Positions 456-46,714 of a stretch of 46,717 nucleotides of DNA are shown piece by piece. Position numbers and translations under genes: made by a program. The stretch comes from Escherichia phage vB_EcoS-IME253: sequence record NC_047810.1. The stretch is one strand, 5' to 3'. The notes beneath the pieces were generated by a model that worked only from the letters and a program-made list of their open reading frames with translations, made no database searches and was not told where the DNA came from. The first letter of the stretch is position 1. Every line of letters starts with the position of its first letter.

Positions 456-640
456 TTGGCATCTGCGTAAAAACAAATGGCTTCTTTACACTTCTTGAGG
501 ATTATGAAATTAATTTCGATTCAAATGAAATAACAGTGTTAAGCGATGATGGGTGCTATTGGTTCCTTAGTTATCAAGGTGATGGTTATTACGGTTGCAG
601 AGATTCAGGCGGAAAAGAGGTTAGTTTCTTAGTCGAATAG
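434..640 (+). CDS. hypothetical small protein (68 aa)
   Basis: ORF whose TAG stop is the TAG of the ATAGCAC element at 637. Confidence 0.45.
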   Translation: MPGGFFMIGICVKTNGFFTLLEDYEINFDSNEITVLSDDGCYWFLSYQGDGYYGCRDSGGKEVSFLVE

Positions 641-680
641 CACTTTTTGTTAAAAATCAAATCCATGGATGGATTATATT
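637..680 (+). promoter_or_regulatory. palindrome-plus-hexamer element (copy 1)
   Basis: atagcactttttgttaaaa at 637-655; TATATT at 675-680 after 22-nt spacer; next ATG 711. Confidence 0.45.
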
Positions 681-710
681 AAACACATCAACAACGCAGA
701 GGATTGAGAG

Positions 711-836
711 ATGAAAATTGTAGACAGAGAGATGTTTGAGATCGCACAGATGTACGCAAATGATGCTGTAAAAACTGGCTCTGATTATTGCTGGATGTGC
801 GCTAAAGAATACCTGAAAATGGCCTACGGCTTATGA
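711..836 (+). CDS. hypothetical small protein (41 aa)
   Basis: ATG at 711 preceded by gaggattgagag; ends in ATGA overlap with the next ORF; below the ORF-track size cutoff. Confidence 0.35.
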   Translation: MKIVDREMFEIAQMYANDAVKTGSDYCWMCAKEYLKMAYGL

Positions 837-1075
837 TAGTTAAAACCGGACGCGCGGAAGTATGGGCGCACTGTGGGGAGGCTGGCATTCAGGATGATAT
901 TAAACAAATTTCTCGCTTCTTCGACATAAAAGATATAAGCGTAGTCTATGATGGTAAATTCTCATACGTTGATGAGCGCCCAAGAAAGTACGTAAGAGTT
1001 AAGCCAGGTGTAAGCATAGATGTTAACGAATTCCTGAAATCTCAGGGATGCAAATTTAAGATAACTAAGGCATAA
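833..1075 (+). CDS. hypothetical protein (80 aa)
   Basis: ORF translationally coupled to the upstream small ORF. Confidence 0.45.
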   Translation: MIVKTGRAEVWAHCGEAGIQDDIKQISRFFDIKDISVVYDGKFSYVDERPRKYVRVKPGVSIDVNEFLKSQGCKFKITKA

Positions 1076-1078
1076 ATT

Positions 1079-1330
1079 ATGTTGGGATTGGACTTTCAGC
1101 CAGAGCATTACGATTTAGTTCATGGTCAGAGTGGGGTAAAGTTTAGAGCTATACCTATTGCTGACTGGTTTCCTCCTGATTATGTGGATGTGAACGCAAA
1201 AACTAAAGACGGGAAGTGGGTTCAGATTTACTACTCCCCAGCATGCGGAAACCTTTGCATGACTGACCTTGATAAGAAATTAGCAATTAGTGCGGAAGTT
1301 ATCGACTACTGGTTGAAAGAAGTTGAATGA
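1079..1330 (+). CDS. hypothetical protein (83 aa)
   Basis: ORF in co-directional early block. Confidence 0.45.
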   Translation: MLGLDFQPEHYDLVHGQSGVKFRAIPIADWFPPDYVDVNAKTKDGKWVQIYYSPACGNLCMTDLDKKLAISAEVIDYWLKEVE

Positions 1331-1412
1331 AGAGCCTGATACTAGTAGCATTAGTCCCACTGTTTAGCTTTACTATCTTATACTTTATCGTAATGAATTA
1401 AGGAACTTATAA

Positions 1413-2549
1413 ATGGCAACTGCAAAAATTACCAACGAAGAACTGCGCGAAGAACTGGCAAATGGCATGACAAACAAGGCAATCGCAGAGAAGTACGGCA
1501 TGAACATTCGCAACGTTGAATTGCGTCGCAGTAAGCTGGCGAAGAGTGGAGAATTGCACGGAAACCCAGGCATCAAGAAGCTAGTTCCTGACGGTTATAT
1601 GGTTAAGGGTACGTCAACCATGATTGACGCTGATGGTAACGAGAAGATTAGATGGGTCAAAACCTCAATAGACAATGAGCGCCTTGAGGTTTTAATGGAG
1701 CAAGCTCGCGAGGCATTCTGCTCTGAGTTGCCAAAGGCCACTCCATCTGAATCACCAAATGTTAACTTTGATAATGACACACTTGCGATGTATCCAGTTT
1801 TTGATTTGCACATTGGGGCGATGGCCCACAAACATGAGTGTGGCGAAAACTATGATACAGCAACAGCAGAGAATGTTATGAATGGGTTCTTTGACTACGC
1901 TGTAGATAAGGCGCCAAACTCTAAGAATGCTGTATTGGTATTGGGTGGTGATTTCCTACATTACGATTCCCTAGAGGCTAAAACCCCGGCCTCAGGCCAT
2001 ATCTTAGACTCTGACAGTCGTTACGCTAAGATTGTTTATGTCGCAATCCGGTCAGTTCGTCGTGCGATCTCTCGAATGATGGAGAAGCACCAAGTTATTG
2101 ATATTAAAGTAATAAGTGGAAATCACGACGAAGCAGGGATGGTTTGGCTTCGCGCTGCTATTGCTGCATTTTATGAAGACGAGCCTCGCGTAAATGTTGA
2201 TGTTAGCCCAGCTGCAATGATGATGACAAGCTTTGGAACGACGCTTATTGGATACACTCATGGCCACCAAATGCGGAAAGCCGATACTCGACTAACTGTT
2301 ATGGCAACTGATTTTCGTAAGTTATTTGGTCAAAGTGAGTATGTTTACACACATAGTGGCCACTGGCATTCTCAGAAGATTACAGAAACAAACTTGGGAA
2401 TTGATGAGGTTCATGGGCAGCTGGGAAGTCCTGACGCGTACTCAGCAAATGGCGGCTGGCGCTCTCAACGTCAAGCGGCAGTTATTGTCTACCATAAAGA
2501 ATTCGGTGAAGTTGGCCGCTTCATTTGTCGCCCTAAAATGTTTAGCTAA
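1413..2549 (+). CDS. calcineurin-like metallophosphoesterase with N-terminal HTH-like segment
   Basis: Motifs DLHIG, GGDFLHYD, GNHDE, YTHGH in order typical of metallophosphatases; RBS aaggaa before ATG; TAATAG double stop. Confidence 0.6.
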   Translation: MATAKITNEELREELANGMTNKAIAEKYGMNIRNVELRRSKLAKSGELHGNPGIKKLVPDGYMVKGTSTMIDADGNEKIRWVKTSIDNERLEVLMEQAREAFCSELPKATPSESPNVNFDNDTLAMYPVFDLHIGAMAHKHECGENYDTATAENVMNGFFDYAVDKAPNSKNAVLVLGGDFLHYDSLEAKTPASGHILDSDSRYAKIVYVAIRSVRRAISRMMEKHQVIDIKVISGNHDEAGMVWLRAAIAAFYEDEPRVNVDVSPAAMMMTSFGTTLIGYTHGHQMRKADTRLTVMATDFRKLFGQSEYVYTHSGHWHSQKITETNLGIDEVHGQLGSPDAYSANGGWRSQRQAAVIVYHKEFGEVGRFICRPKMFS

Positions 2550-2593
2550 TAGCACTTTTTGCCTAACCCATGCCGTAGAAATGCGGCATAATT
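2549..2593 (+). promoter_or_regulatory. palindrome-plus-hexamer element (copy 2, degenerate)
   Basis: atagcactttttgcctaa after TAA stop; CATAAT 2588-2593; leader catcgaaacgag; next ATG 2634. Confidence 0.4.
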
Positions 2594-4445: not shown

Positions 4446-6029
4446 TCACCCCAACAGTCGTGGATTAATGTAAACTTTATCACCAATCAGGCACGTATAG
4501 TTTTTCTCATCAAGCATTGGCAGTAAGTGATCTTTAATCTTTGTCATTACACCAGCCTGAGCTTCGAACGGCTTAACCTTACGAGCCGCTTCATATAGAG
4601 AACGAATACCCACTACTCCTTTACCGTTCTTGCCTTGCTTAATTAGAATATCAATCAGCTTATTCATCTCGGCATTGTCGCCAGCGTGACCAGCGGCGTT
4701 TGCAGATGACAGATAAGTCTTGCTAAGTTCATGGAACATAATTACAGCTTCTTGCATGGTGTCGAGCTCGATCTCTCTGGACTTCTGTGGACTACCGCCA
4801 TTTGGGTTGAACCAGTTGCGCACAGTGTGAAGAACAGCTGCAATCCTTATGGCCTGCTTATCGAACTTACCCAACGCGCCGCGCAACATTGTATGTGAAT
4901 ACTTCCCGCCATCTGCAAGGTGAGGTTCCATCTCCTGACGCGCACGGTTGAGGTATTTCATCGCTGAGTTGCTTACTGTCAACTTAACATCTTGCTCGTT
5001 CATGATCTCATGAACAAGACGGAAGTAGTCGGCCTTCAGGCCACCATCAATTGGCTCGTAAGTTGAATTTCCATTCTCATCAACGAATACACGCTCACCC
5101 AGGAATGACTTTTCACGGACGAGAAGGAAACGCTCCGATACACCGATACCACGTGCGCCAGCGTTCATTATCGCGTTTATTGTCTCGTCCTGCGCAATTA
5201 CAGAGATACAACCCATAGCAACGAAACTCATGTTGTTCTCTGCATTAGCACGCGCGATAGATACGTTACCAGCATCCCATGCCTTGAGTACGAGTTCGCT
5301 GTTCGTTTTCTTCGAGCCGTCACCATAAGTCATGCCAAGCAGTGAGTTCACGCTCGTCGCCTCATCCGAGATGACCGCGAAGTTGCCCTGGCGGTTGTTT
5401 ATTCGCGCAAGACCTTCCGGCGTGGTATCTGATACAGGGAAAACGATATCGCATAGTCTCTCGAGCTTTTCCTCAAGTTCCTCCTTTTCCTCAAAGAGAG
5501 ACGCCATCTCTGATGGAGATTTTTCCTGCTTCATCTCTTTTGATAACGCAGATAGTTTGGCCATAATCTTTTTACGCTCATGCTTTCGCACTTCATTAAG
5601 CCGCTCAGTCTCAGCAATCATTGGAGCAATTGAAAGTGAGTTAATTGCTGATTTACCAGTCGATGGTGGCTGGCTTGTCACGACATAAAGAGAAGTAGGC
5701 TGCTGAGTTCCATGATACTCAACTGTAAATCGGCCTAGCATCGCAGCGGAAATACACCCCAGAAAGTGCATATAAGCTGACGACTCAGGGAACTGAACGG
5801 AACGGGCAATATTGGCTGACAGCTTACCAACAACATCAATGTCATTACCGAGTGAGATTACTGGATACTTGTCATTTGCAGCATCAATCTCGACAGGTGC
5901 TTTCCAGAATGATTGAGACTGGCGATAGCCATTGGCATTAATGGCGACGCGCAGGGGCGGGAGGTTGTCCGCGGCTGCAATTGCCATAACCTGTTCAACA
6001 GATAGTTTATCTTCGTTGAAATCAAACAT
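4446..6029 (-). CDS. large hypothetical protein (527 aa) with P-loop-like STGKS segment and coiled-coil region
   Basis: Long ORF with RBS aaggag; N- and C-terminal segments homologous to the 174-aa product of 8721..9245. Confidence 0.6.
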   Translation of the reverse strand: MFDFNEDKLSVEQVMAIAAADNLPPLRVAINANGYRQSQSFWKAPVEIDAANDKYPVISLGNDIDVVGKLSANIARSVQFPESSAYMHFLGCISAAMLGRFTVEYHGTQQPTSLYVVTSQPPSTGKSAINSLSIAPMIAETERLNEVRKHERKKIMAKLSALSKEMKQEKSPSEMASLFEEKEELEEKLERLCDIVFPVSDTTPEGLARINNRQGNFAVISDEATSVNSLLGMTYGDGSKKTNSELVLKAWDAGNVSIARANAENNMSFVAMGCISVIAQDETINAIMNAGARGIGVSERFLLVREKSFLGERVFVDENGNSTYEPIDGGLKADYFRLVHEIMNEQDVKLTVSNSAMKYLNRARQEMEPHLADGGKYSHTMLRGALGKFDKQAIRIAAVLHTVRNWFNPNGGSPQKSREIELDTMQEAVIMFHELSKTYLSSANAAGHAGDNAEMNKLIDILIKQGKNGKGVVGIRSLYEAARKVKPFEAQAGVMTKIKDHLLPMLDEKNYTCLIGDKVYINPRLLG

Positions 6030-6863: not shown

Positions 6864-6907
6864 ATAATACCGCATCCTTGCGGAAATGCTTTAGCAATTA
6901 GTGCTAT
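6864..6907 (-). promoter_or_regulatory. palindrome-plus-hexamer element (copy 3, minus orientation)
   Basis: rc atagcactaattgctaa at 6891-6907; rc TATTAT at 6864-6869 (22-nt spacer); rc catcgaaa leader 6851-6859. Confidence 0.45.
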
Positions 6908-7508: not shown

Positions 7509-7553
7509 ACTATAGCTTCATTACCTCAGTATGCCTTTAGCAAAAAGTGCTAT
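7509..7553 (-). promoter_or_regulatory. palindrome-plus-hexamer element (copy 4, minus orientation)
   Basis: rc atagcactttttgctaaa at 7536-7553; rc TATAGT at 7509-7514 (23-nt spacer); leader rc catcatcaacaacgagg. Confidence 0.45.
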
Positions 7554-7779: not shown

Positions 7780-7916
7780 TGTATACTGTGTAACGATTTG
7801 GCATAAGCATACGCGGCATACGCATTTTTACGCATTAGTTACAATAAAATATCTATATATAACAACCCTTTATCTATATTATTATTATTATATATATCTA
7901 TGTATACTGTGTAACG
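7780..7916. repeat. pair of 16-bp direct repeats tgtatactgtgtaacg flanking the AT-rich core
   Basis: Identical 16-mers at 7780-7795 and 7901-7916; region also rich in GTAAC/GTTAC and GCGTAA/TTACGC pentamers. Confidence 0.55.
7827..7916. repeat. AT-rich 90-bp repeat, copy A (core ttattattattattatatatat)
   Basis: About 85 percent identical by eye to 36941..37030; sits in a 545-bp non-coding divergent region. Confidence 0.6.
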
Positions 7917-8184
7917 GCTATCTAGGGGCGGCATCTGTCAAATTTGATAATATTGCCCACTAATATATAAGGGAGCCATTCCGCCAGGATAATAGGGCCA
8001 TATGCAGACAATCACCATTCAGTATGCGTTACACGATATACTGCCTACTTACATTAGGCGCAGCTAGGCCTCCAGGGCAAAAATGTTTCCAGGCCTGTTT
8101 TTTACATGTGATTACTATTGACTTACGCGTTAACTACCATCATAATAGCCTCACTTAAACGCAGCAACCAAATGAGGTAACGAG

Positions 8185-8721
8185 ATGAATAAGGTAACTT
8201 TAGGTGATGTAATTCGTGAGATGGTCCGCCAGGCGATTAAGTCCGACAAGAAACTATGTGTAGTTCCAGTTCGAAAGATATTCAACATGGTCAACGGGTA
8301 TGATTATCCGGATGAAATCATCGACGAGGAAACTGGAGAGTTCAAAACGCCTGGTCGTGAAATCGCAGGCCTGAAAAGTTCATACATCTATAACACCGCC
8401 GCAAGAATGCAGGAGCTTCGCGATATTGATATGCACGTAAAGCATCGCTTTATCTGGCTGGCGTCAGGCGAGGAAACGGTAGCGCGCAAGGTTGATGGCG
8501 ATGGCGCGGACAAGAACCTTCTGATCCAGCTTGAGCCTGGTGCTCTTAAGCCGACAAAGCGTAAGACTGCAGATATTGAGAAAGAGGCAGCCACCATTGA
8601 AAGGTTTAAGTCACGACTACTCAAGATCGCGCCGAATATTATAGACCTGCAAGGCGAACAAAAAGAAGGCGCGCTTATTGCCCTGGCACGCTACTATGAA
8701 ATGATTAAGGAGGCTAACTGA
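8185..8721 (+). CDS. hypothetical protein (178 aa)
   Basis: First rightward gene after the AT-rich divergent region; RBS gagg. Confidence 0.5.
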   Translation: MNKVTLGDVIREMVRQAIKSDKKLCVVPVRKIFNMVNGYDYPDEIIDEETGEFKTPGREIAGLKSSYIYNTAARMQELRDIDMHVKHRFIWLASGEETVARKVDGDGADKNLLIQLEPGALKPTKRKTADIEKEAATIERFKSRLLKIAPNIIDLQGEQKEGALIALARYYEMIKEAN

Positions 8722-9245
8722 TGTTTAATTTAAACGAAGAGAAACTGACGGACGAGCAGATTATGAATATTGCTATCCAGGATGATCTGCCGCCACTGCG
8801 GGTTGCAATCAATGCTAACGGTTATCGTCATGTTCAGCACCTCTGGGGCCAGCCTGATGCATCGGAAGTCTACAGAGATGAAGCGCTGGGAGTTCTGATT
8901 AAGTTGATCAGGAAGATGGCAAGGAACGGAAAGGGAGTGGTGGGTGTCAAGTCTGTACACGAAGCTGCACGTAAGGTTAAGCCGTTCGAGGGTCGAAATG
9001 GAATCATGGCGCGCATTAAGGATGAGCTCATCCCCGCACTCGATAAGATGAATGTTACCTGTCTAATTGGAGATAAGGTTTATGTCCACTCGGCAATCAT
9101 TGATGAGTACTGGCAACCAAACTTCAAAACTTACGAAGGTGAGCACACTAGTAGACTACCATACCACTTGCTGTACAGTGAGGGTGAGGTGGAGATGGCC
9201 GTAGAGTTCTATCGGAAAGCTAAATCACTTCTGAACGGTAAATAG
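8721..9245 (+). CDS. mini-paralog of the 527-aa protein (174 aa; shared N- and C-terminal modules only)
   Basis: N-terminus MFNLNEEKL..LPPLRVAINANGYR and C-terminal NGKGVVG..EAARKVKPFE..CLIGDKVY match 4446..6029; TGATG coupling to the upstream gene. Confidence 0.55.
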   Translation: MFNLNEEKLTDEQIMNIAIQDDLPPLRVAINANGYRHVQHLWGQPDASEVYRDEALGVLIKLIRKMARNGKGVVGVKSVHEAARKVKPFEGRNGIMARIKDELIPALDKMNVTCLIGDKVYVHSAIIDEYWQPNFKTYEGEHTSRLPYHLLYSEGEVEMAVEFYRKAKSLLNGK

Positions 9246-9285
9246 CACGAATTGTTAAACCTTCCGCAAGGCCATTTGATATAGT
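9242..9285 (+). promoter_or_regulatory. palindrome-plus-hexamer element (copy 5)
   Basis: atagcacgaattgttaaa; TATAGT 9280-9285 (22-nt spacer); next ATG 9318. Confidence 0.45.
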
Positions 9286-9317
9286 GGCCTTATTGAAGCA
9301 AAGCAAGAGAGGATTGG

Positions 9318-9548
9318 ATGGAGAGAAATAAATACGAAAGAGAGATTGTCGGGCTTAATGGCGAGCGCGCTATTGTTGATGTGTATCGCACGCTATCAGC
9401 ATTCAACGTTACAGACCCAGCATGTCAGCACGCAATCAAGAAGCTGCTATGTATGGGTTTACGAGGCCACAAAGATGTAATTACTGACCTTGATGATGCA
9501 ATAGACTCACTGAACAAGATGAAAATTTACCTGGAGCAAACGAAATGA
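9318..9548 (+). CDS. hypothetical protein (76 aa)
   Basis: ORF downstream of the element at 9242; RBS gagagg. Confidence 0.45.
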   Translation: MERNKYEREIVGLNGERAIVDVYRTLSAFNVTDPACQHAIKKLLCMGLRGHKDVITDLDDAIDSLNKMKIYLEQTK

Positions 9549-9715
9549 TTAAATTAACAGAAGAAGAGAAAAAGTCGATAGTGATGATTCATGAGATGCT
9601 TTGTAAGGAGCATCAAACGCCAAATTCTCGTATATACGCATGGGAATTGTTTGATGATTATGTAAATCTGGATGCTTTCACATCTGCGGTCAATAAGATT
9701 GAAGAGGGTATTTAA
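9545..9715 (+). CDS. hypothetical small protein (56 aa)
   Basis: ATGA overlap with upstream gene; hand-translated. Confidence 0.3.
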   Translation: MIKLTEEEKKSIVMIHEMLCKEHQTPNSRIYAWELFDDYVNLDAFTSAVNKIEEGI

Positions 9716-9716
9716 A

Positions 9717-9947
9717 ATGATTACAACCAACCTGTCAGAGAAAGACGCATCAATTCTCAAGTCAATGCTTATGACATTTAGTAATTCTCGCTCATCCGAA
9801 CAGGCTCGAGTCGTTAAAGAGACTGTAGCACAAATCAACAATCAGCAGTTCGACGTAAGTGACTTCGAATCATCACGCCAATACGAATCTCTAAGTATTC
9901 AGAATGCTGGCTACCTCACGAACTGGGATAAGGCGACTAACAAATGA
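9717..9947 (+). CDS. hypothetical protein (76 aa from ATG 9717)
   Basis: Internal ATG of the track ORF 9672..9947, directly after the stop of the upstream small ORF. Confidence 0.4.
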   Translation: MITTNLSEKDASILKSMLMTFSNSRSSEQARVVKETVAQINNQQFDVSDFESSRQYESLSIQNAGYLTNWDKATNK

Positions 9948-10081
9948 TTTACGTTCACACATACTACACAGGCAAGTTCAATAGCGTTAAGCATGTTCGC
10001 GTGCACGATAGCTACGATAGCGCAAAGGCGCAATGGCTGGTCCTTGGTGGTGACATTAATTCATATAAAATTGCCGAATAG
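9944..10081 (+). CDS. hypothetical small protein (45 aa)
   Basis: ATGA overlap; in-frame TAG stop is the TAG of the element at 10078. Confidence 0.3.
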   Translation: MIYVHTYYTGKFNSVKHVRVHDSYDSAKAQWLVLGGDINSYKIAE

Positions 10082-10121
10082 CATGAATTGCTAAAACAAC
10101 ATTGGGGTAATTTGATATAGT
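10078..10121 (+). promoter_or_regulatory. palindrome-plus-hexamer element (copy 6)
   Basis: atagcatgaattgctaaa; TATAGT 10116-10121; leader ccccatcgaaacgaa; next ATG 10152. Confidence 0.5.
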
Positions 10122-10151
10122 TACCCCATCGAAACGAACGAGGAAGCAGGA

Positions 10152-10364
10152 ATGAAAATTGAAATTATCGACGTGAATTATGCTGCCAGTGACAACGCCT
10201 TAACTTTAGAAGAATGCGGCTTTAAGGTTGGCGATGTAGTTGAGGTGTCCGGTCACTACCTTTATGGCGAACTTTCAATCCAGGCAATCCGTAAAACTAG
10301 GTTCGTCAATATTGGAAATGAAATCAGTATTAGCGAGCATGAATACAAGGTGGTAGAGAAATGA
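10152..10364 (+). CDS. hypothetical protein (70 aa)
   Basis: ATG after leader ccccatcgaaacgaacgaggaagcagga. Confidence 0.45.
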   Translation: MKIEIIDVNYAASDNALTLEECGFKVGDVVEVSGHYLYGELSIQAIRKTRFVNIGNEISISEHEYKVVEK

Positions 10365-10540
10365 AATTTCAACAAAGCGACCCAAAACTCCAGGCCAACC
10401 ACTTCGACGGCTACGCGACATTCATCATTGCCCAGGCTTGCGGGATGCGTGACGAGCCACAGGTTCACACCATCCACTTAACAGAAGAACAGGCTCGAGA
10501 GTTGGCCTACGAAATTCTAGAGCAATTGAACCGAATTTAA
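10361..10540 (+). CDS. hypothetical small protein (59 aa)
   Basis: ATGA overlap with upstream gene; hand-translated. Confidence 0.3.
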   Translation: MKFQQSDPKLQANHFDGYATFIIAQACGMRDEPQVHTIHLTEEQARELAYEILEQLNRI

Positions 10541-10591
10541 CGAGCCTAAAACGAATTCTAACGAACTATAATTTAAGTAAGGTGATTCATC

Positions 10592-10717
10592 ATGGAAGTA
10601 CAAGAAAGCCCAGTAGAGTGGTGCAGGCGAATGCAGGACGAAGCTAAAACGGGCGAAGAGGCGATGGCTTACTACGAGCTGGCGAAAATGTGGATGGAGC
10701 GGGAGAAGAGACAATGA
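10592..10717 (+). CDS. hypothetical small protein (41 aa)
   Basis: ATG with RBS aaggtg; ATGA overlap with the next small ORF. Confidence 0.3.
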   Translation: MEVQESPVEWCRRMQDEAKTGEEAMAYYELAKMWMEREKRQ

Positions 10718-10851
10718 GCTTCACTGAATATGTTATCGCATGCGAGAGGTTGGTTTTCGATATGAAGACTTTCCACTGGTTCGTCATTAAGGATTTGATT
10801 AAGCCTTATAAGCAGGGCGTGACACCTGAGGCATTTATCAAGAGCTTCTAT
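10714..10851 (+). CDS. hypothetical small protein (45 aa)
   Basis: In-frame TAG stop is the TAG of the variant element at 10848. Confidence 0.3.
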
Positions 10852-10891
10852 AGCACTAAAAGCTAAACGCAGTCGCCACGGATGGCATATA
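10848..10891 (+). promoter_or_regulatory. palindrome-plus-hexamer element (copy 7, variant)
   Basis: atagcactaaaagctaaa; TATAAT 10886-10891 (22-nt spacer); next ATG 10924. Confidence 0.4.
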
Positions 10892-10923
10892 ATTACCCAA
10901 TCAACACAGCGAGAGATTGAGAA

Positions 10924-11160
10924 ATGTTCGGACTAAATGACGCATACTTCAACGCAGTTAAGCGACAGGCTGACAAGCTAAACGATGAGTACAGCAAATT
11001 GGGAGTAAAGAAGAAAGATGATAAGGTTGTGGCTGCACTGATCACACAGGTTTGGGGCCCGGTATCAACACTTATCGCTCGCGATAAATTTGTGTGGATT
11101 GCTGGTTATCGAAAGGGTCGAGTTGGTCATGACGAGAATGGGAATAGCCTTTATGAATAA
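10924..11160 (+). CDS. hypothetical protein (78 aa)
   Basis: ATG after gagagattgagaa leader. Confidence 0.45.
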   Translation: MFGLNDAYFNAVKRQADKLNDEYSKLGVKKKDDKVVAALITQVWGPVSTLIARDKFVWIAGYRKGRVGHDENGNSLYE

Positions 11161-11338
11161 TTGTAAGCACCACTATTACTACGCATACGAGTCGAAAGTG
11201 GAGAAGTCTGACATTGATGGGCTTAAACATGGATGGGCTGACACAACTGCGCCATGTATCTTCGTAGGAATGAAAATGGCATTCTACGTTTGCAGTAAGT
11301 GCTACAATATACTTATCGCGGAGAGGCTAGGTAAATGA
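11153..11338 (+). CDS. small Cys/His-rich protein (61 aa, possible zinc-binding)
   Basis: ATG 11153 overlaps upstream stop (ATGAATAA); C..HH ... C..C pattern. Confidence 0.4.
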   Translation: MNNCKHHYYYAYESKVEKSDIDGLKHGWADTTAPCIFVGMKMAFYVCSKCYNILIAERLGK

Positions 11339-11633
11339 GCGAGTTAACAATCTGGTTTATCGCAGGGCTGATTACTTGGGGTTACTTTTTAATCGCTTAG
11401 ATGGAGATTGTCAAAAAGAGCTTGCATCACTGACCGGAATTACCTAATATTGACCACGTAGAAGACAGCCATCCAAGATGGAACGGCGCACGGAGCGCAC
11501 TACACGGTAAGTCCGTTGCTCATTAAGTAGCGTATGCGGCACACCCTTACGGGACTTGCAAGACCTAGCGCAAATAGGCAGATTAACCGGCTGTATCAGG
11601 CAGCCCCGGAGCCGTAACCGGGACTCATTCAAA

Positions 11634-11711
11634 GCTCTGCTAGCTCAACAGGATAGCAGCAACGACCTTCTAAGTCGTAGGTTACTGGTTCGAATCCAGT
11701 GCGGAGCGCCA
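11634..11711 (+). tRNA. tRNA-Arg (anticodon UCU)
   Basis: Hand-folded cloverleaf: acceptor GCUCUGC/GCGGAGC, D-loop with GG, anticodon stem ACGAC/GUCGU with loop CUUCUAA, T-arm ACUGG-UUCGAAU-CCAGU, discriminator G and encoded CCA. Confidence 0.75.
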
Positions 11712-11726
11712 ATAAAGGAGTTCATT

Positions 11727-11909
11727 ATGTGGGATGTGAAGTTGTCCATTCGCTTAATGGGCCGCTCGTGCAAGAATTGCACTCAAGATTACATCGCGTC
11801 AGTTGCCGCAATCAGCGCTGAGGATGCGGTAGCGAAAGTAAAGGAGTTGTCGGGCGCTGACCCTGATACTCACAAATTCCTGGTAGCTTACGTTCGTGAG
11901 CGAAAGTAA
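11727..11909 (+). CDS. hypothetical small protein (60 aa)
   Basis: ATG 11727 with RBS aaaggag just after the tRNA; followed by terminator. Confidence 0.35.
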   Translation: MWDVKLSIRLMGRSCKNCTQDYIASVAAISAEDAVAKVKELSGADPDTHKFLVAYVRERK

Positions 11910-35571: not shown

Positions 35572-35615
35572 ATAATACCGCATCCTTGCGATAAGTGTTT
35601 AGCAATTAGTGCTAT
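35572..35615 (-). promoter_or_regulatory. palindrome-plus-hexamer element (copy 11, minus orientation)
   Basis: rc atagcactaattgctaaa at 35598-35615; rc TATTAT 35572-35577; rc leader catcgaaacgaa; drives 35427..35531 and lipoprotein gene. Confidence 0.5.
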
Positions 35616-36796: not shown

Positions 36797-36840
36797 AATA
36801 TACCTAAAGATAGCCAGTTGTCTTTAGCAAATCGTGCTAT
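36797..36840 (-). promoter_or_regulatory. palindrome-plus-hexamer element (copy 12, minus orientation)
   Basis: rc atagcacgatttgctaaa at 36823-36840; rc TATATT 36797-36802 (22-nt spacer). Confidence 0.45.
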
Positions 36841-38491: not shown

Positions 38492-38535
38492 ACAGCACGA
38501 ATTGCTAAAACAAAACGGGATGACTTAGGTATAGT
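38492..38535 (+). promoter_or_regulatory. palindrome-plus-hexamer element (copy 13, variant)
   Basis: acagcacgaattgctaaa after TAA of exonuclease gene; TATAGT 38530-38535; next ATG 38565. Confidence 0.45.
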
Positions 38536-38564: not shown

Positions 38565-39215
38565 ATGCAAATTTCAGAATTATGCAAATCAATTTTAAAA
38601 GCGCTTCACACTGCTAAATCGCTATTTGCGAAGGCTGAAAAGTCTAAGCAGAACTCTCACTTAAAGAATAAATACGCTACCTTAGAAGACGTTTTGGCGG
38701 CTGTTGAGCCTGGTTTATATGAGTGTGGTTTGGTGATGTTCCAGAGTGTGATTGATGACGAACAAACAAATCGCATGAAGGTCGAGACAAAGCTGTTTCA
38801 TGTTGAATCTGGAGAGTGGGTAAGCTTCTTAATGATAGTCCCAATCAGCAAGAATGATGCACAAGGTTACGGATCAGCTTTAACATACGCTCGTCGCTAC
38901 GGTATCACAGCTGCCTTGGGTCTTAGCCAGGCTGATGATGACGGAAATCTTGCAGCCAAAGGCGTTAAGGATTTCAAGCGAGAGCTAGAGAAATGCAATA
39001 CTCTTGATGAACTTCGTAACGTCTGGAAAGAGGCTAAGCAGTCACTTGATGCGGCTGGATGGAAGGTTTTTGAACCTCACATTATCGAGCGCAAGGCAGA
39101 GATTGAGGCAAATGCGATGACTGGCTTCAACCCAGCAACACCAAAGAAAGTTGCAGAAAAAAGTAGTCCTGAAGAAAAGATTAAAGTAGAATCACAACAA
39201 ATCGACACATTCTAA
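38565..39215 (+). CDS. single-strand annealing protein (Erf-like, putative)
   Basis: 216 aa, TYARRYGI-type motif, position between exonuclease and SSB. Confidence 0.45.
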   Translation: MQISELCKSILKALHTAKSLFAKAEKSKQNSHLKNKYATLEDVLAAVEPGLYECGLVMFQSVIDDEQTNRMKVETKLFHVESGEWVSFLMIVPISKNDAQGYGSALTYARRYGITAALGLSQADDDGNLAAKGVKDFKRELEKCNTLDELRNVWKEAKQSLDAAGWKVFEPHIIERKAEIEANAMTGFNPATPKKVAEKSSPEEKIKVESQQIDTF

Positions 39216-42637: not shown

Positions 42638-42655
42638 ATAGCACGAATTGCTAAG
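42638..42655 (+). promoter_or_regulatory. solo palindrome copy (no -10-like hexamer at expected spacing); candidate operator
   Basis: atagcacgaattgctaag about 30 bp upstream of the tailspike start codon (minus strand); expected hexamer position reads GGCATA. Confidence 0.35.
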
Positions 42656-42680
42656 TTGGATTGTAGCATCTTTCAGGCAT

Positions 42681-43625: not shown

Positions 43626-43683
43626 ATCAATCTATCTCTGAACAAATAAAAAAGGATGCACCGATTATGGCACATCCAATTCC

Positions 43684-44157
43684 TTACTCTTTAGCTTTTC
43701 GTGCTGCCTCATTAGCGGCCTTGATCTTTCTCCATGAACGACACTCTGGTTTGGTTGCTAACTCGGACTCAGTAACCACACGCAGCATGTGACGCTTCTT
43801 GCACCGTAATGTCAGCGGCTTTCCGTTGCCGTCGAATTGCAGGTCTGGTCGGCAGAATGTAGCGCGAAAACCTTCTCCATTTCGTTTGTAGTAGTTGTGC
43901 GATAGCTGAGCACCACGTGCAGAAATCATACCACGCTTAAACCATTCCTCTACAGCCTGTGGTGTTACCTTTAACTGCTTTGCGATATTCGCCTTTGTGC
44001 CGAAGAAATCAAGAACAATCTCCAGTCGCGCGCGCAACCCTGCCCTTACTTCATCTTTCAAAACGTAGTAACCTGAAGGTCGTTTTCGTTGTTTTTTGTC
44101 TTCAGTGCGGACAGTTCCGTTATTACCGTTGATTGTTCTCTTGTCGACTGTATTCAT
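43684..44157 (-). CDS. HTH DNA-binding protein (putative transcriptional regulator)
   Basis: Basic N-terminus and HTH-like IAKQLKVTPQAVEEWFKRG; sits in divergent region. Confidence 0.4.
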   Translation of the reverse strand: MNTVDKRTINGNNGTVRTEDKKQRKRPSGYYVLKDEVRAGLRARLEIVLDFFGTKANIAKQLKVTPQAVEEWFKRGMISARGAQLSHNYYKRNGEGFRATFCRPDLQFDGNGKPLTLRCKKRHMLRVVTESELATKPECRSWRKIKAANEAARKAKE

Positions 44158-44169
44158 TTCATTACCTCA

Positions 44170-44213
44170 ATAGCATTTTTTGTTAAAAGTCATTCTGATT
44201 TGATGGTAGTATT
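44170..44213 (+). promoter_or_regulatory. palindrome-plus-hexamer element (copy 15, variant)
   Basis: atagcattttttgttaaaa; TAGTAT 44207-44212 (21-nt spacer); upstream of helicase ATG 44259 in divergent region. Confidence 0.4.
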
Positions 44214-44258
44214 GTACTCAATTAAACGCTACAAGACAATTTTTATAGGAATTTAGAT

Positions 44259-46253
44259 ATGTTGCCTATCGAGAAGCTGGTTGCTAACTTTGATAAAGAA
44301 AGAATCAAACAGATTCAGAAGGATTACCAGTTTGGGGAGATAACCCCATACGAGTTCCAATGCGTAACATTTGATGCTATCGGAAAGGCTATTGGGAAGT
44401 ATGAGGCCCCATTTATAGCAGACCTTTCAGTTTCTGCTGGTAAGACAATCATTCTTGCCATGATTGGTAAGCGCATGGAGCAATTGGGATTGCCTTATAT
44501 GGTTCTTTCTCGCCAGTCAGAGATAATCAGCCAGAACTCAGAGGAGCTTCGTAATTTCGGCATCCGTAATAGCGTCTATTGCGCTGGCCTTAACGTTAAA
44601 TCGGTTTACTACCCAACCATAGTTGCCAGTGAGGGTACGGCAGCCAACGGCTTGTTTAAGGGGCTTGGTGACTATGTTCCTGCCGTTATAGCTATAGATG
44701 AGTGTCACATGGTGGACCACATGGATATTGTGGAAGCTGAAGAGAACGAGGAAACATTTGAGCAAATGAGCACAAAGAAAGGCGAGATGGTTTTTAAGGG
44801 TGGCGTAAACACAGGATTGCTTGGCACTGGTCGTGCGCAGTACACGCTAATTATCACCGAGATGAAACGTCGTTGTCGTGAGAGGTATGGTCGTGAGCTT
44901 CGTATATTCGGTCTAACTGGTAGCCCATACCGTAACAACGATCATATTGTCGTTAGCAACCCAAACATCCGCGGATTCTGGCGTAAGACGGTAATTCAGG
45001 TGCCAACCAATTACCTGGTTGATTTGGGCTTCGTGGTTCCAACTGTTTACGGTGAGGTTGGTGATCTGGGTTACGACCTTAGCGAATTTGCGCCAGACGG
45101 TAGTGATGGTGTTAAAGACTTTGGCAAGAAAGAAATGGATGCAATGCAGGAAAAGATTCATCAAAACCAGTCCATGACGCAAAAGATTATGCAATTTGCC
45201 GCAAAGTTCATGGAGACTCGCAACGCTGCGCTTGTGACATGTGCCGGTAAACGTCATTGTGAGGAGGCAGCAGCAGCGCTTCCTGAGGGTGTAACCTGGG
45301 CTATAGTAACTGACTCTACTGGTGAGAAAAAGCGTAGGGAGATTCTTTCTGACGCAGTTGAAGGTAAGTATAAATTCATATTTCAGATCGGTTGTCTCAC
45401 AACTGGCGTGAACGTCCCGCCATGGGATACATCAATCATTCTGCGCAAAGTTGGTAGTATCACGCTTCTTATTCAGCTTTTGGGGCGAGGCATGCGAATA
45501 CTTAAGAAGAAACATAAGGAAATGGGGATGGTCAAGGATGATCACGTGGTGCTAGACTTTGCTGGCACTCTTGATGACATGGCAGAATTATACTTTGATC
45601 CAATCATAGAGGAGGTGCAGGATCAGAAATTCAAGTCCTCTCGTAAAGTTGGGGATAAGTCAAGAGTATGTCAGGCCTGTGGATATAAAAACTCCCCACT
45701 TGCTCGTCGTTGCAATAACGTAATTGACGGAAAGCGTTGTGATAATTTTTTTACATTTCGCTTGTGTGAAGATATAGAGGACCCGCAGACAAAATCTATT
45801 ATTAAGAAAGGTTGTGGTGAGAAGAATGATATTGCCGCTAAAAACTGTCGGTGCTGCGGTGAGATGTTAATAGACCCGAATGCAAAGTTATCTGGGAAAA
45901 TGTATCGTAAAGGAGACTGGTTGCGAGTCTACGACTTTAAGATTGGATTAACAAAGAATCAATCAGGGATTGTTGCCTCATACGAGGTCATGGCTCATAG
46001 TGGTGATAGGTTCCGGGCCTATGAGACGTTTTTTCCAGAGTCAGACCATCGCGTTTGCTCTGTAAGATGGAAAGCATTTTGCTCAACTCACATAGAGAAC
46101 AGGACTGAGGCTTTTAGAATTGGCAGGTTGCGTAATGCTAAGATGATTATGACTAATGCTCACCTTTTTCGTGCGCCATTAAGGATTACGCACAGAAAAA
46201 ACCAGAAAGGTCAGGATATTATCGCCAATAAATCTTTTACTATGGAGGATTGA
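44259..46253 (+). CDS. SF2 DNA helicase with C-terminal zinc-ribbon repeats
   Basis: Walker A SAGKT and DECH box; C-terminal CxxC pairs (CQACGY, CRCCGEM). Confidence 0.7.
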   Translation: MLPIEKLVANFDKERIKQIQKDYQFGEITPYEFQCVTFDAIGKAIGKYEAPFIADLSVSAGKTIILAMIGKRMEQLGLPYMVLSRQSEIISQNSEELRNFGIRNSVYCAGLNVKSVYYPTIVASEGTAANGLFKGLGDYVPAVIAIDECHMVDHMDIVEAEENEETFEQMSTKKGEMVFKGGVNTGLLGTGRAQYTLIITEMKRRCRERYGRELRIFGLTGSPYRNNDHIVVSNPNIRGFWRKTVIQVPTNYLVDLGFVVPTVYGEVGDLGYDLSEFAPDGSDGVKDFGKKEMDAMQEKIHQNQSMTQKIMQFAAKFMETRNAALVTCAGKRHCEEAAAALPEGVTWAIVTDSTGEKKRREILSDAVEGKYKFIFQIGCLTTGVNVPPWDTSIILRKVGSITLLIQLLGRGMRILKKKHKEMGMVKDDHVVLDFAGTLDDMAELYFDPIIEEVQDQKFKSSRKVGDKSRVCQACGYKNSPLARRCNNVIDGKRCDNFFTFRLCEDIEDPQTKSIIKKGCGEKNDIAAKNCRCCGEMLIDPNAKLSGKMYRKGDWLRVYDFKIGLTKNQSGIVASYEVMAHSGDRFRAYETFFPESDHRVCSVRWKAFCSTHIENRTEAFRIGRLRNAKMIMTNAHLFRAPLRITHRKNQKGQDIIANKSFTMED

Positions 46254-46254
46254 T

Positions 46255-46674
46255 ATGAATATTACAGACAAAGTTGATTACATTGAGTTTTACCCTGGCC
46301 CGGTTAAGTCATGCCCTAAAGAGGATGATGAACAAATCTTTTGCTCTGATTGGGTTAAGTATAACTACCCAGAGATGGTATTTTTCCACTGCGTGAATGA
46401 GGGTAAGAAAACCATTGGTCAAGCAAGAAAAGATCAGGCTAAGGGTCTCCTTAAGGGAGTGTCAGACTGTATGTTTCTTATACCTGAATCTATCCGAGGC
46501 AAATACCCTTTCGGAGCTATAGAGCTAAAGAGAGCAGGAAAAACGCAGGCAAGCCCAGTCAGTGAGGAGCAGAAAGCTTTCCTTAAAAGCGTAATGGAAT
46601 CAGGTGGTTTCTCCGCAGTCGCCTACGGCAGGGAAGGGTTCCTTGCAGCATTCAAAGAAATGATTTCAAAATAG
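46255..46674 (+). CDS. VRR-NUC domain nuclease
   Basis: D...ELK...Q..F pattern and size (139 aa) typical of VRR-NUC; stop is TAG of the element at 46671. Confidence 0.55.
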   Translation: MNITDKVDYIEFYPGPVKSCPKEDDEQIFCSDWVKYNYPEMVFFHCVNEGKKTIGQARKDQAKGLLKGVSDCMFLIPESIRGKYPFGAIELKRAGKTQASPVSEEQKAFLKSVMESGGFSAVAYGREGFLAAFKEMISK

Positions 46675-46714
46675 CACGAATTGCTAAATGAGATTTCAAA
46701 AGATGGGGTATAGT
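46671..46714 (+). promoter_or_regulatory. palindrome-plus-hexamer element (copy 16, split across window ends)
   Basis: atagcacgaattgctaaa; TATAGT 46709-46714; conserved leader continues at window start (catcgaaacgaa 3-14); next ATG 34. Confidence 0.5.

Follow-up and report, generated by a model that had tools for sequence, protein, structure and literature searches.

A marbox-like box at a fixed distance from the −10 hexamer in a repeated promoter family of Escherichia phage vB_EcoS-IME253

The genome of Escherichia phage vB_EcoS-IME253 is that of a closed, circularly permuted, T1-like coliphage of the Drexlerviridae, related to Rtp, and its entire 46,717-nt sequence constitutes the window analyzed here. 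An initial annotation described sixteen copies of ATAGCAC-N4-TGCTAAA, each directed toward a gene, and ascribed them to promoters activated by one dimeric DNA-binding protein. The question raised is whether these repeats form a genuine promoter family and, if so, what protein would read them.

When the genome was searched with ATAGCACNNNNTGCTAAA (≤2 mismatches), 17 matches were obtained against 0.52 expected from dinucleotide shuffles, and 16 of these were the annotated sites; the sixteen-copy claim is therefore real. The additional match, at 29867 on the minus strand, is intragenic, lacks a hexamer and is probably a chance occurrence. The stricter pattern proposed previously gave 10 matches against 0.035 expected, with a maximum of 1 across 200 shuffles. 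The perfect dyad TAGCA-N5-TGCTA occurs 9 times (0.09 expected), and only 9 of the 16 sites are thus true palindromes. One degenerate element, on the minus strand upstream of the primase gene, was missing from the earlier list and brings the family to 17, as follows (box, box-to-hexamer gap, hexamer).

637–680, plus strand: element 1; box ATAGCACTTTTTGTTAAAAA (637–656), 18 nt, TATATT (675–680); predicted start A at 687; precedes a 41-codon ORF from 711.
2549–2592, plus strand: element 2; box ATAGCACTTTTTGCCTAACC, 18 nt, CATAAT; spacer hairpin TGCCG-N8-CGGCA adjoins the hexamer; precedes ORF 2634–2810, then holin/endolysin genes.
6864–6907, minus strand: element 3; box ATAGCACTAATTGCTAAAGC (6907–6888), 18 nt, TATTAT (6869–6864); spacer hairpin CCGCA-AGGA-TGCGG.
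7509–7553, minus strand: element 4; box 7553–7534, 19 nt, TATAGT (7514–7509); precedes ORF 7478–7302.
9242–9285, plus strand: element 5; box ATAGCACGAATTGTTAAACC, 18 nt, TATAGT; arms AAGGCC/GGCCTT either side of the hexamer; box TAG is the stop codon of ORF 8721–9245; precedes ORF 9318–9548.
10078–10121, plus strand: element 6; box ATAGCATGAATTGCTAAAAC, 18 nt, TATAGT; arms GGGGTAA/TTACCCC either side of the hexamer (z = −5.8); predicted start A at 10128; precedes ORF 10152–10364.
10850–10893, plus strand: element 7; box ATAGCACTAAAAGCTAAACG, 18 nt, TATAAT; precedes ORF 10924–11160.
14427–14470, plus strand: element 8; box ATAGCACTAATTGCTAAACA, 18 nt, TATATT; the large terminase gene (12865–14430) uses the box TAG as its stop codon; precedes ORF 14502–14858.
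22448–22491, plus strand: element 9; box ATAGCACTTTTTGCTAAAGC, 18 nt, TATAGT; 5′ neighbor is the terminator after the major tail gene; precedes ORF 22525–22773.
26458–26501, plus strand: element 10; box ATAGCACTAAATGGTAAAGC, 18 nt, TACAAT; spacer hairpin AAGCCAAA-AGGA-TTTGGCTT; precedes the HNH endonuclease gene 26530–27000.
35572–35615, minus strand: element 11; box ATAGCACTAATTGCTAAACA (35615–35596), 18 nt, TATTAT; spacer hairpin as in element 3.
36797–36840, minus strand: element 12; box ATAGCACGATTTGCTAAAGA (36840–36821), 18 nt, TATATT; long leader, then an anti-repressor-like gene (36716–36027).
38492–38535, plus strand: element 13; box ACAGCACGAATTGCTAAAAC, 18 nt, TATAGT; precedes the Erf recombinase gene 38565–39215.
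42638–42657, plus strand: box-only copy ATAGCACGAATTGCTAAGTT, no hexamer; faces a terminator.
44170–44212, plus strand: element 15; weakest box ATAGCATTTTTTGTTAAAAG, 17 nt, TAGTAT; precedes the helicase gene 44259–46253.
46671–46714, plus strand: element 16; box ATAGCACGAATTGCTAAATG, 18 nt, TATAGT; runs over the window junction, its leader continuing at bases 1–33 (ttcatcgaaacgaaacg...); precedes ORF 34–234.
43654–43707, minus strand: element 17, degenerate; box GCAGCACGAAAAGCTAAAGA (43707–43688) inside the 3′ end of the regulator gene, 18 nt, CATAAT (43669–43664); hexamer in the loop of a 9-bp hairpin (43677–43654) followed by a T-run, so that terminator and promoter overlap; precedes the primase gene 43625–42702.

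The description of these sites as intergenic was loose: eight elements touch or overlap the codon that ends the preceding gene, and in four of them the TAG of the box itself serves as that stop codon (ORF ends 640, 9245, 14430 and 46674). The claim that the element always points at a downstream gene holds for every hexamer-bearing copy, each of which has an ORF 3′ to it.

As annotated, 15 of the 16 boxes carry a good −10 hexamer 21–23 nt past TTGCTA; thirteen sites have exactly 22 nt, the exceptions being 7536 (minus strand) with 23 nt and 44170 (plus strand) with 21 nt. Measured from the end of the 20-mer box, the gap is 18 nt in 14 of the 17 elements here and at 16 sites in ZL19, 16 in T1 and 14 in ADB-2, the others having 17 or 19 nt. 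Across 58 phage elements, the hexamers average 4.86 of 6 consensus matches and the −35 position 1.67 of 6, values that support a family of promoters that have a good −10 but lack a usable −35; an extended TG precedes the −10 in 24 of the 58 (∼40%). The class II activator geometry suggested earlier is also borne out, with the box centered at about −40.5 to −41.5 when counted, like all promoter positions given here, from the predicted start site. At most sites, the conserved leader CATCGAAACGA or its variant CATCAACAACG and a purine-rich RBS follow, again as described, and at 10 sites the hexamer lies 28–33 nt from the start codon. Spacer and leader differ freely from copy to copy, while the box stays constant. 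Canonical sigma70 promoter-like sites are not enriched genome-wide (35 against 37.4 expected; 27 against 27.1 expected).

The 20-bp box has the consensus ATAGCAC-[T/G]WW-TTG-Y-TAAA-nn. Among 53 distinct sites from this genome, ZL19 and T1, the dyad is kept in only 26. G is invariant at position 4, while the mirror position, 14, has C in 33 sites and T in 16, and positions 1, 7, 17 and 18 are strongly conserved without a symmetric partner; the conservation table was anchored on the 5′ half of the box, which exaggerates the asymmetry seen. All promoter-type copies point the same way with respect to the −10. Given the dyad count, the asymmetric conserved positions and the fixed orientation, the proposal of a dimeric protein reading a palindrome is not supported; in our reading, the palindrome is incidental and the box asymmetric and one-directional. 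Against a monomeric reader, about half of the boxes contain a 15-bp dyad whose half-sites are spaced by 10 bp, an arrangement that suits a dimeric helix-turn-helix protein.

The asymmetric box was compared with published host marboxes. The pattern GCANNWWNTGNNAAA (PMC12052159) has 15 perfect matches against 1.06 expected, 13 of the 15 being family members, and is matched perfectly by 40 of the 53 distinct sites; a second pattern, GCAHWWWWTGYYAAA (PMC6900184), has 16 matches at ≤1 mismatch against 1.40 expected. The variable box columns (8, 9, 10, 14, 19 and 20) are the N/W/Y positions of the marbox. Read directly from Escherichia coli K-12, the micF promoter consists of ACAGCACTGAATGTCAAAAC, 18 nt, TAGAAT and 7 nt to the annotated 5′ end. 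Its soxbox, at −41.5, binds a single monomer and has GCAC as its A site and CAAA as its B site (PMC9638938). Phage boxes are identical to the micF marbox at 15 of 20 positions (element 13, ACAGCACGAATTGCTAAAAC, is an example) and to the mar marbox at 16 of 20. More generally, forward marboxes cluster at −41 in class II promoters that lack a −35 (mean 1.9/6) and have a canonical −10 (PMC10268841). The phage elements thus share with host class II MarA/SoxS/Rob(RamA) promoters such as micF a forward, asymmetric 20-bp marbox carrying GCAC in the A site and (C/T)AAA in the B site, an 18-nt gap to the hexamer, a center at about −41, a canonical −10 and the lack of a −35. Judged by sequence, the box closely fits published marbox definitions and would be placed exactly as in the micF promoter. 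Neither a MarA/SoxS-like nor an AraC/HTH_18 protein turned up in any frame or scanned ORF of the phage. The evidence favors a host factor, which the initial annotation had listed as one option.

The phage boxes differ from these host promoters in occurring in virulent genomes, at 16–27 high-quality copies per roughly 47 kb, in carrying an embedded covarying hairpin and a conserved leader, and in that their activator binding and dependence are presumed from sequence. They are also far less degenerate than host marboxes, with A3, T11 and T12 nearly invariant. Such uniformity counts against the marbox reading, and could reflect either a more specific reader or recent spread and homogenization of the cassette.

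Two phage proteins had been put forward as readers. The product of 1413–2549 is not supported as a candidate, being a Metallophos/SbcD-like DNA-repair exonuclease without a helix-turn-helix. The other is encoded beside element 15.

43684–44157, minus strand: “transcriptional regulator” of 157 aa with a single Cro/P22-C2-like helix-turn-helix; the rival box reader.
44211–44239, minus strand: canonical sigma70-type promoter of the regulator gene (TTGTCT, 17 nt, TACAAT).

Under this alternative, essentially the model of the initial annotation, a phage-encoded protein, likeliest this regulator, would be expressed from its own canonical sigma70 promoter, bind TAGCA-N5-TGCTA as a dimer, activate ∼15 box promoters as a middle-gene class and repress its own gene and the tail-fiber gene through reversed leader boxes. 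The regulator is conserved in 823 Drexlerviridae-type records, and its promoter is among the few canonical sigma70-type promoters near boxes. The −10 of this promoter overlaps that of the helicase box promoter (element 15), whose box, read in reverse, also falls within the leader of the divergently oriented regulator gene, a classic switch layout. Read on the minus strand, the 42638 box spans about +3 to +20 of an extended −10 promoter (TGcTACAAT, 42669–42661) ahead of the tail-fiber gene, a position that is operator-like by its predicted coordinates; this box-only copy is kept in T1, Rtp, ZL19 and ADB-2. These two leader boxes fit a phage-encoded dual regulator at least as well, the perfect dyads in half of the boxes are in keeping with it, and lambda-cI-type activators also suit class II geometry.

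By contrast, it would be very improbable for the box to agree with the marbox by chance in sequence, frame, orientation and exact −10 distance, and neither the non-conserved dyad (position 14 is Y against an invariant G4, with asymmetric flanks) nor the single orientation of promoter-type copies is expected of such a reader. The regulators of this phage and T1 share only ∼52% identity and differ at roughly half of the predicted recognition-helix residues, whereas the box is identical. Furthermore, T4-like phages retain the complete, correctly placed cassette, yet no regulator homolog was detected there among the matches listed, all of which are records of ≤54 kb. Given the diverging helix and this distribution, the regulator is not supported as the box reader, and we regard the alternative as unlikely. 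Good −10 hexamers without a −35, preceded by a conserved box at a fixed distance and present in many copies per genome that define one temporal class, are also known from T4 MotA/AsiA middle promoters and from lambda cI at PRM; these systems use phage-encoded proteins. The MotA box (TGCTT) lies at about −30, and lambda-type sites are symmetric, whereas the box here lies at ∼−41 and no phage-encoded counterpart was found in this genome.

The complete cassette is present in ∼800 phage records, whose named hosts are Enterobacteriaceae and which include the T4-like Slopekvirus and Pseudotevenvirus with unrelated flanking genes. Comprising box, hairpin spacer, −10 and leader (∼65 nt), it behaves as a mobile unit before accessory and replication genes, and the whole, spacer arms and leader included, is ∼80% identical between unrelated phages. 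The embedded hairpins are significant and covarying, such that arm sequences change while pairing is kept, and they can double as terminators of upstream transcription. PeSL cassettes of T4-type phages (PMC2839356, PMC4122927) are likewise short composite units of promoter and stem-loop (terminator), repeated before small accessory genes, common to several phages and variable in their arms with pairing kept. However, PeSL promoters are of the canonical −35/N17/−10 or MotA-box type, whereas the present cassette has a marbox in place of the −35 and its hairpin inside the promoter, in the spacer or around the −10.

These features bear on a second alternative, in which RNA polymerase alone would initiate on the strong, often TG-extended −10, and conservation of the box would have another cause: it could serve the alpha C-terminal domain as an UP-like or bending element, or supply the homology through which a mobile promoter-terminator cassette spreads. 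An UP-like role is one suggestion of the authors who described the repeat in phage TLS (PMC11447400), and spread by recombination has been proposed for PeSLs. The quality of the hexamers, which might permit activator-free activity and in that respect counts against the marbox reading, is consistent with this explanation, as are the cross-phage identity of the whole cassette, its location at accessory-gene junctions and the PeSL-like covarying hairpins (PMC4122927). An UP element, however, is A/T-rich and needs no invariant GCAC, and recombinational homology leaves unexplained why the variable columns are those of the marbox and why the class II distance to the −10 is fixed. Given also that the box is constant while spacer and leader vary, polymerase acting alone seems quite improbable.

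The repeat itself is already published: a 21-nt direct repeat, aaATAGCACnnnTTGnTAAAA, was described in phage TLS in 2024 and is also on record for T1, Rtp and Rogue1. The TLS paper settled on no function, suggesting that it could act as a stoperator, as an enhancer-binding site or in the manner of an UP element (PMC11447400). The repeat is the same as the present box in sequence, orientation to transcription, distance to the start codon (∼76 nt) and T/A/G subgroups at positions 8–10; the fixed −10 distance, marbox match, spacer hairpins and T4-like occurrence are absent from that paper. The stoperator suggestion belongs to a third alternative, in which the boxes would be mainly negative elements, such as stoperator-like sites bound by a phage repressor, or decoy marboxes soaking up MarA/SoxS/Rob during genome replication, and initiation would not require them. 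The position of boxes between genes, oriented with transcription (PMC11447400), is compatible with this, as are the number of high-quality marboxes per genome and the existence of hexamer-less copies (42638 here; 117−, 8365+, 15083−, 25024+ and 34905+ in T1). Neither a roadblock nor a decoy, however, needs a −10 locked at one distance and followed by leader and RBS, as in 14 of 17 copies here and 14–16 each in ZL19, T1 and ADB-2, and we consider this explanation very improbable.

Given that no phage AraC-type protein was detected, that the Cro-like regulator diverges while the box is constant and that the cassette occurs in T4-like phages apparently without the regulator, the best explanation, which we hold with moderate confidence, is that the elements are class II marbox-type sigma70 promoters that would be activated by monomeric host MarA/SoxS/Rob. 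Here, one monomer of this family (RamA in Klebsiella and Enterobacter) would occupy the 20-bp box, one helix-turn-helix reading GCAC in the A site and the second TAAA in the B site. The forward box, at about −50 to −31, would take the place of the −35 element, and the bound activator would contact the alpha C-terminal domain and sigma70 region 4, as in the published micF structures. From the strong −10 hexamer, TG-extended in ∼40% of copies, RNA polymerase would initiate at a conserved A seven nucleotides further on, giving a C/A-rich 5′ UTR of ∼22–26 nt ending in a GAGG-type RBS. This scheme only partly accounts for the covarying hairpin within the cassette.

No binding, transcription or 5′-end data on any T1-like phage were found in the searchable literature. 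Unstressed cells contain little MarA or SoxS, and Rob stays mostly inactive before induction; for a virulent phage, relying on these proteins looks risky, which counts against the marbox reading. Rob is the most plausible of the host paralogs, since it is constitutive and abundant. Given the match to the marbox and the micF-like placement, the phage probably borrows host stress activators, MarA/SoxS/Rob, to switch on many of its genes.

The repeated cassette in this genome consists of a 20-mer box (ATAGCAC-N4-TGCTAAA), a spacer carrying a hairpin, a −10 hexamer, and a leader. The window is the complete, circularly permuted genome of an Rtp-like coliphage (Drexlerviridae, T1 superfamily); the sequence closes on itself, because its first bases carry on the leader of the last element. 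Over a 14-kb segment (9000-23000), the identity is 99.8% with Escherichia phage ZL19 and ∼90% with phage Rtp. Searching the window with ATAGCACNNNNTGCTAAA at ≤2 mismatches gave 17 occurrences against 0.52 expected, and all 16 sites of the initial annotation were recovered among them. The remaining match, at 29867 (minus), lies inside a gene without a hexamer and is probably due to chance. The perfect dyad TAGCA-N5-TGCTA was found only 9 times (0.09 expected), and the regular expression proposed in the initial annotation returned 10 matches, against 0.035 expected in dinucleotide shuffles. The 16-copy motif family is therefore real.

Spacing within the elements is regular. In 13 sites a good −10 hexamer follows TTGCTA after 22 nt; one site has 23 nt, another has 21 nt, and the site at 42638 has no hexamer. 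At 10 sites the hexamer lies 28-33 nt before the start codon, and at 10 sites the start of the box lies 72-77 nt before it. Eight elements are in contact with the stop codon of the gene before them; in 4 elements the TAG of the box itself (aTAGcac) is that stop codon, the large terminase gene being among the genes so ended, and four further elements begin 0-1 nt from the upstream stop codon. A 17th, degenerate copy precedes the primase gene.

638-640: box TAG as stop codon of the upstream gene
9243-9245: box TAG as stop codon of the upstream gene
14428-14430: box TAG as stop codon of the upstream gene
46672-46674: box TAG as stop codon of the upstream gene
43707-43688, minus strand: box of the 17th copy, followed by 18 nt and CATAAT, upstream of the primase gene

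The family is also already in print. When phage TLS was re-annotated in 2024, a direct repeat of 21 nt (aaATAGCACnnnTTGnTAAAA) was described at 21 places, running with transcription and ∼76 nt before start codons, and the same repeat was pointed out for T1, Rtp, and Rogue1 (PMC11447400). The boxes in the window agree with this repeat in consensus, in orientation with transcription, and in distance to the start codon. We counted 23 copies in T1 and 20 in Rtp; they are not annotated in the current GenBank record of T1. According to that paper, TLS lacks genes for RNA polymerase and sigma factors and has just three intergenic promoters resembling those of sigma70, and the functions offered for the repeat (stoperators, enhancer-binding sites, or UP-like elements) were left undecided (PMC11447400). 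What is new here is the identification of the box as a putative forward class II marbox. A literature search found no paper linking the marbox to phage, no transcript map for any T1-like phage (Drexlerviridae), and no data on activator stimulation of the phage boxes or loss upon marbox mutation.

A marbox is occupied by one molecule of an AraC-family activator, namely MarA, SoxS, or Rob (in Klebsiella and Enterobacter, RamA), and the classical marbox 20-mer is AYnGCACnnWnnRYYAAAYn. This consensus matched the window 15 times against 1.05 expected. With the published definition GCANNWWNTGNNAAA (PMC12052159), 15 perfect matches were obtained against 1.06 expected, and 13 of the 15 were family members; a second definition, GCAHWWWWTGYYAAA (PMC6900184), gave 16 matches at ≤1 mismatch against 1.40 expected. 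Across three genomes, 40 of 53 distinct sites are perfect marbox matches, and the box has the ∼20-bp asymmetric form of the marbox, in which GCAC is followed after 7 bp by AAA. Boxes of the T group are identical to the mar marbox at 16/20 positions, and one element resembles the micF marbox in frame, orientation, and spacing.

38492: element with box ACAGCACGAATTGCTAAAAC, 18 nt, and TATAGT; identical to the micF marbox at 15/20 positions
1279-1296, both strands: marbox-like sequence TCCGCACTAATTGCTAATTT (minus) within ORF 1079-1330, without a hexamer

The latter is probably a chance match or a relic. Judged by sequence and geometry, on which all of this reading is based, the box would be a class II marbox, and binding of, and activation by, a monomer of MarA, SoxS, or Rob is predicted.

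The initial annotation had taken the box for a palindrome bound by a dimeric protein. The dyad, however, was kept in only 26 of the 53 distinct sites from three genomes, a set that is anchored on the 5′ half of the box and somewhat overstates the asymmetry; the unanchored mismatch pattern from the ATAGCACNNNNTGCTAAA scan (≤2 mismatches) agreed with asymmetry. Position 4 is an invariant G, and its mirror position 14 is C at 33 and T at 16 of the 53 sites, matching the marbox Y exactly. Complementary pairing was observed at positions 4/14 in 62% of sites and at 1/17 and 7/11 in 0-2%, although the latter are strongly conserved. Positions 1, 7, 17, and 18 are strongly conserved and lack a counterpart in the mirror half, and the variable columns 8, 9, 10, 14, 19, and 20 coincide with N, W, and Y positions of the marbox. 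Given that two-fold symmetric conservation of half-sites is missing and that the orientation of the box is fixed relative to the −10 in every promoter-type copy, the reading as a palindrome bound by a dimer is not supported.

The textbook class II promoter is micF. As read from E. coli K-12, it consists of ACAGCACTGAATGTCAAAAC, 18 nt, TAGAAT, and 7 nt to the annotated MicF 5′ end. It served as the sole spacing reference because the −10 of fumC, which has a clear marbox, is ambiguous (gap of 17-19) without a mapped start. The micF soxbox is centered at −41.5 and bound by one SoxS monomer, with GCAC as its A site and CAAA as its B site and with sigma region 4 moved off the −35 (PMC9638938); a RamA site has likewise been placed at ∼−41 (PMC8811837). 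Published class II position windows are −36 to −55, or 30-42 bp upstream, with the center near −41. In Salmonella, ChIP-seq combined with Cappable-seq showed that forward marboxes cluster at −41 and that class II promoters are without a −35 (mean 1.9/6) and keep a canonical −10 (PMC10268841).

The phage elements share this arrangement. Of the 17 elements in the window, 14 have a gap of 18 nt between box and hexamer and two more have one of 17 or 19 nt, and an 18-nt gap was found at 16 sites in ZL19, 16 in T1, and 14 in ADB-2. All promoter-type copies are in the forward orientation, and box, 18 nt, and hexamer follow one another as in micF, such that the box overlaps the −35 position with respect to a predicted start. 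Averaged over 58 distinct phage elements, the match is 1.67/6 at the −35 (compared with the published mean of 1.9/6) and 4.86/6 at the −10, and the TG of an extended −10 is present in 24 of the 58. An A occupies the seventh base past the hexamer in 47 of the 58 elements and is preceded by a pyrimidine tract; the predicted start site is sharp for this reason. The class II geometry put forward in the initial annotation is thus borne out, with the box gap and a center near −41 relative to the predicted start as in micF, as is its view that TTGCTA, with a 22-nt spacer, is not a sigma70 −35.

Other promoter types were considered and rejected. TTGCTA could not be rescued as a −35 by extrusion of the spacer hairpin, which would leave ∼8 nt, not 17. 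Sigma54 promoters (TGGCAC-N5-TTGC) have strict block spacing; the boxes have AG for GG, their blocks are 2 bp closer, and a sigma70-type −10 lies behind them. The sequence TGCTAAAA does not have a T at the sixth position, as an extended −10 would. The T4 MotA box, TGCTT, sits at ∼−30, whereas the box described here lies at ∼−40.

The cassette is not confined to T1-like phages. Complete copies were found in T4-like phages of Klebsiella, Enterobacter, Citrobacter, and Escherichia, namely Slopekvirus (e.g. Miro) and Pseudotevenvirus (e.g. EC-W1 and CfP1), where they are made up of the box, 18 nt, TATAGT, and the leader CATCGAAAC. No homology to T1-like genes was found among the neighbors of the T4-like cassettes. 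The cassette is present in ∼800 phage records, whose named hosts are Enterobacteriaceae, and had no match in 5,426 complete E. coli genomes, chromosomes and prophages included. In Miro (19647-19720), a second box is followed by a terminator hairpin, with TATCTT and a CATCGAAACGAAAC leader ∼11 bp further downstream, so that the gap is 29 rather than the usual 18.

Which protein would recognize the box was addressed by homology searches. No MarA/SoxS-like protein was detected by tblastn and phmmer in all six frames of the window, with MarA and SoxS probes of approximate sequence giving only noise (E ≥ 0.1), and Pfam scans of 20 window ORFs revealed no AraC/HTH_18 domain. The initial annotation had named two phage proteins as candidates.

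1413-2549: candidate that proved to be a Metallophos/SbcD-like exonuclease
43684-44157, minus strand: candidate regulator gene, whose product has a single Cro/P22-C2-like HTH

Some features speak for the second candidate as the protein that might read the box. Among the few sigma70 promoters near boxes that look canonical, one belongs to the gene of this candidate, and a reversed box lies within the leader of that gene. The box-only copy at 42638 is also reversed, at approximately +3 to +20 of an extended −10 promoter (TGcTACAAT) before the tail-fiber gene; this copy is kept in T1, Rtp, ZL19, and ADB-2, with the same G at box position 18. Such operator-like placements would suit one phage protein with both activating and repressing roles. 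MarA-family proteins also repress where their site overlaps the promoter (PMC12052159).

44239-44211, minus strand: regulator promoter (TTGTCT, 17 nt, TACAAT), whose −10 overlaps that of the helicase box promoter
42638-42669, minus strand: operator-like box-only copy just ahead of the tail-fiber RBS and ATG (∼42614)

Against this candidate, the regulator is only ∼52% identical between the window phage and T1, and the predicted recognition helices are unlike at about half of their residues (TPQAVEEWFKRG versus SNQTVQGWKERN), while the box and its spacing are unchanged. Regulator homologs were found by tblastn in 823 records; among the matches listed, a spread sample of 40, every record is ≤54 kb, and almost all are Drexlerviridae-sized. 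T4-like phages carry the cassette, so that among the matches listed the regulator does not accompany the box everywhere, as a cognate protein would, nor does it covary with the box between T1 and the window phage. We therefore regard recognition of the box by the phage regulator as unlikely. The lack of a detectable phage MarA-like protein, the divergence of the regulator, the presence of the cassette in T4-like phages, and the enterobacterial hosts together favor a conserved host factor as the reader of the box. Activation by host MarA, SoxS, or Rob appears reasonably probable, and the pattern suggests that the T1 family may rely on these proteins.

At 44207-44239, where the overlap noted above is between the −10 of the regulator promoter (minus) and that of the helicase box promoter (TAGTAT, plus), the layout is switch-like. 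In T1, boxes at 15066-15086 and 18830-18850 (minus) and at 8362-8381 and 25021-25040 (plus) are antisense to structural genes or lack a hexamer, and those without a hexamer stand immediately upstream of terS and of a tail-fiber J-like gene. Such T1 boxes suggest roles beyond class II activation.

The cassette contains a hairpin, in the spacer or around the hexamer. For the 34-nt stretch between the box and a point just downstream of the hexamer, the mean folding z-score relative to shuffles was −2.40 for 39 distinct elements, with z < −1.5 in 64% of them. Such hairpins are present in T1 and ZL19 as well; examples from the window, running from the box end to hexamer +8, are as follows.

10096-10129: hairpin segment
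9260-9293: hairpin segment
2567-2600: hairpin segment
26476-26509: hairpin segment

Two layouts were distinguished. In the first, a spacer hairpin adjoins the hexamer (CCGCAAGGATGCGG-TATTAT and CCCGCGAAAGCGGG-TATTAT); in the second, the arms enclose it (GGGGTAA...TTACCCC, AAGGCC...GGCCTT, and AAGGGCA...TGCCCTT). The arms covary, their sequence differing from copy to copy while complementarity is kept; in the homologous cassettes of EC-W1 (GGGATA...TATCCC) and Miro (GGGGTA...TACCCC), they are one compensatory pair apart. Three “rho-independent terminators” annotated in T1 (38973, 39998, and 41978) are spacer hairpins, and in the primase element the hexamer sits in the loop of a 9-bp hairpin (43677-43654) with a T-run behind it. 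At least some cassettes are therefore a terminator and a promoter combined. Given the predicted start, hairpins of the layout that lacks a T-run would lie outside the transcript of their own element, and hairpin function is only partly explained by a terminator role in some elements. NGGA spacer loops occur in six elements; they recall CsrA-type GGA hairpins, but they precede the predicted start and are confined to one subgroup of copies. Rfam, searched with the window at gathering thresholds, returned only a tRNA. The PeSL cassettes of T4-type phages, in which a promoter and a stem-loop are combined before accessory genes, are similar in composition to the phage cassettes described here. By contrast, PeSL promoters are canonical sigma70 −35/N17/−10 (or MotA-box) promoters, with the consensus TTGACA-N17-TATAAT or variants (PMC4122927), whereas the −35 here averages 1.67/6.

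Additional loci in the window were assigned as follows.

11634-11711: tRNA-Arg (anticodon TCT), with small early-type genes on one side and terminase genes on the other, a position shared with related phages
26530-27000: HNH homing-endonuclease gene inserted in the tail module, with its own box promoter
30135-30623: second HNH homing-endonuclease gene, inserted in the tail module
28172-28714, minus strand: Rha-family regulator gene, antisense, inserted in the tail module
7887-7915, minus strand: sigma70-like promoter (10/12 positions) in the largest intergenic gap
8118-8146, plus strand: divergent partner of the preceding promoter (10/12 positions)

This divergent pair probably serves early transcription of the leftward and rightward clusters without an activator. 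At the place that the Rha gene occupies in ZL19 and the window phage, Rtp carries another HNH gene. The 527-residue protein of 4446-6029 (minus) is a member of the DUF3987 helicase family (phrog_7327 and phrog_2373). The C-terminal part of this family is matched by the 174-residue product of 8721-9245, which may be a partial duplicate.

T1-like phages have no RNA polymerase or sigma factor of their own and almost no recognizable sigma70 promoters, and the class II marbox reading would give a long-open conserved repeat a concrete, testable mechanism. A broader scheme can be offered tentatively: most promoters of the T1 superfamily would have been handed to host MarA, SoxS, Rob, or RamA, on a mobile cassette that also entered enterobacterial T4-like phages, with stress-state-dependent expression, soak-up of activators, and a hairpin module as its consequences. 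If this is true, phage gene expression would be tied to the antibiotic, oxidative, or bile stress state of the host, and hundreds of replicated high-affinity marboxes would soak up activators and weaken the multidrug-resistance response of the host. The embedded hairpin would make the cassette a combined terminator, promoter, and recombination module, and host-factor-dependent promoter cassettes would be shown to move between unrelated phage families. The ∼16-27 very strong natural marboxes per genome could also serve as tools for the study of MarA, SoxS, and Rob. A virulent phage family would then be under the regulators that set the intrinsic resistance of E. coli, Klebsiella, Salmonella, and Enterobacter to antibiotics, which would bear on phage-antibiotic combinations, on phage performance in gut bacteria exposed to bile or salicylate, and on how contamination of fermentations by T1 is controlled.
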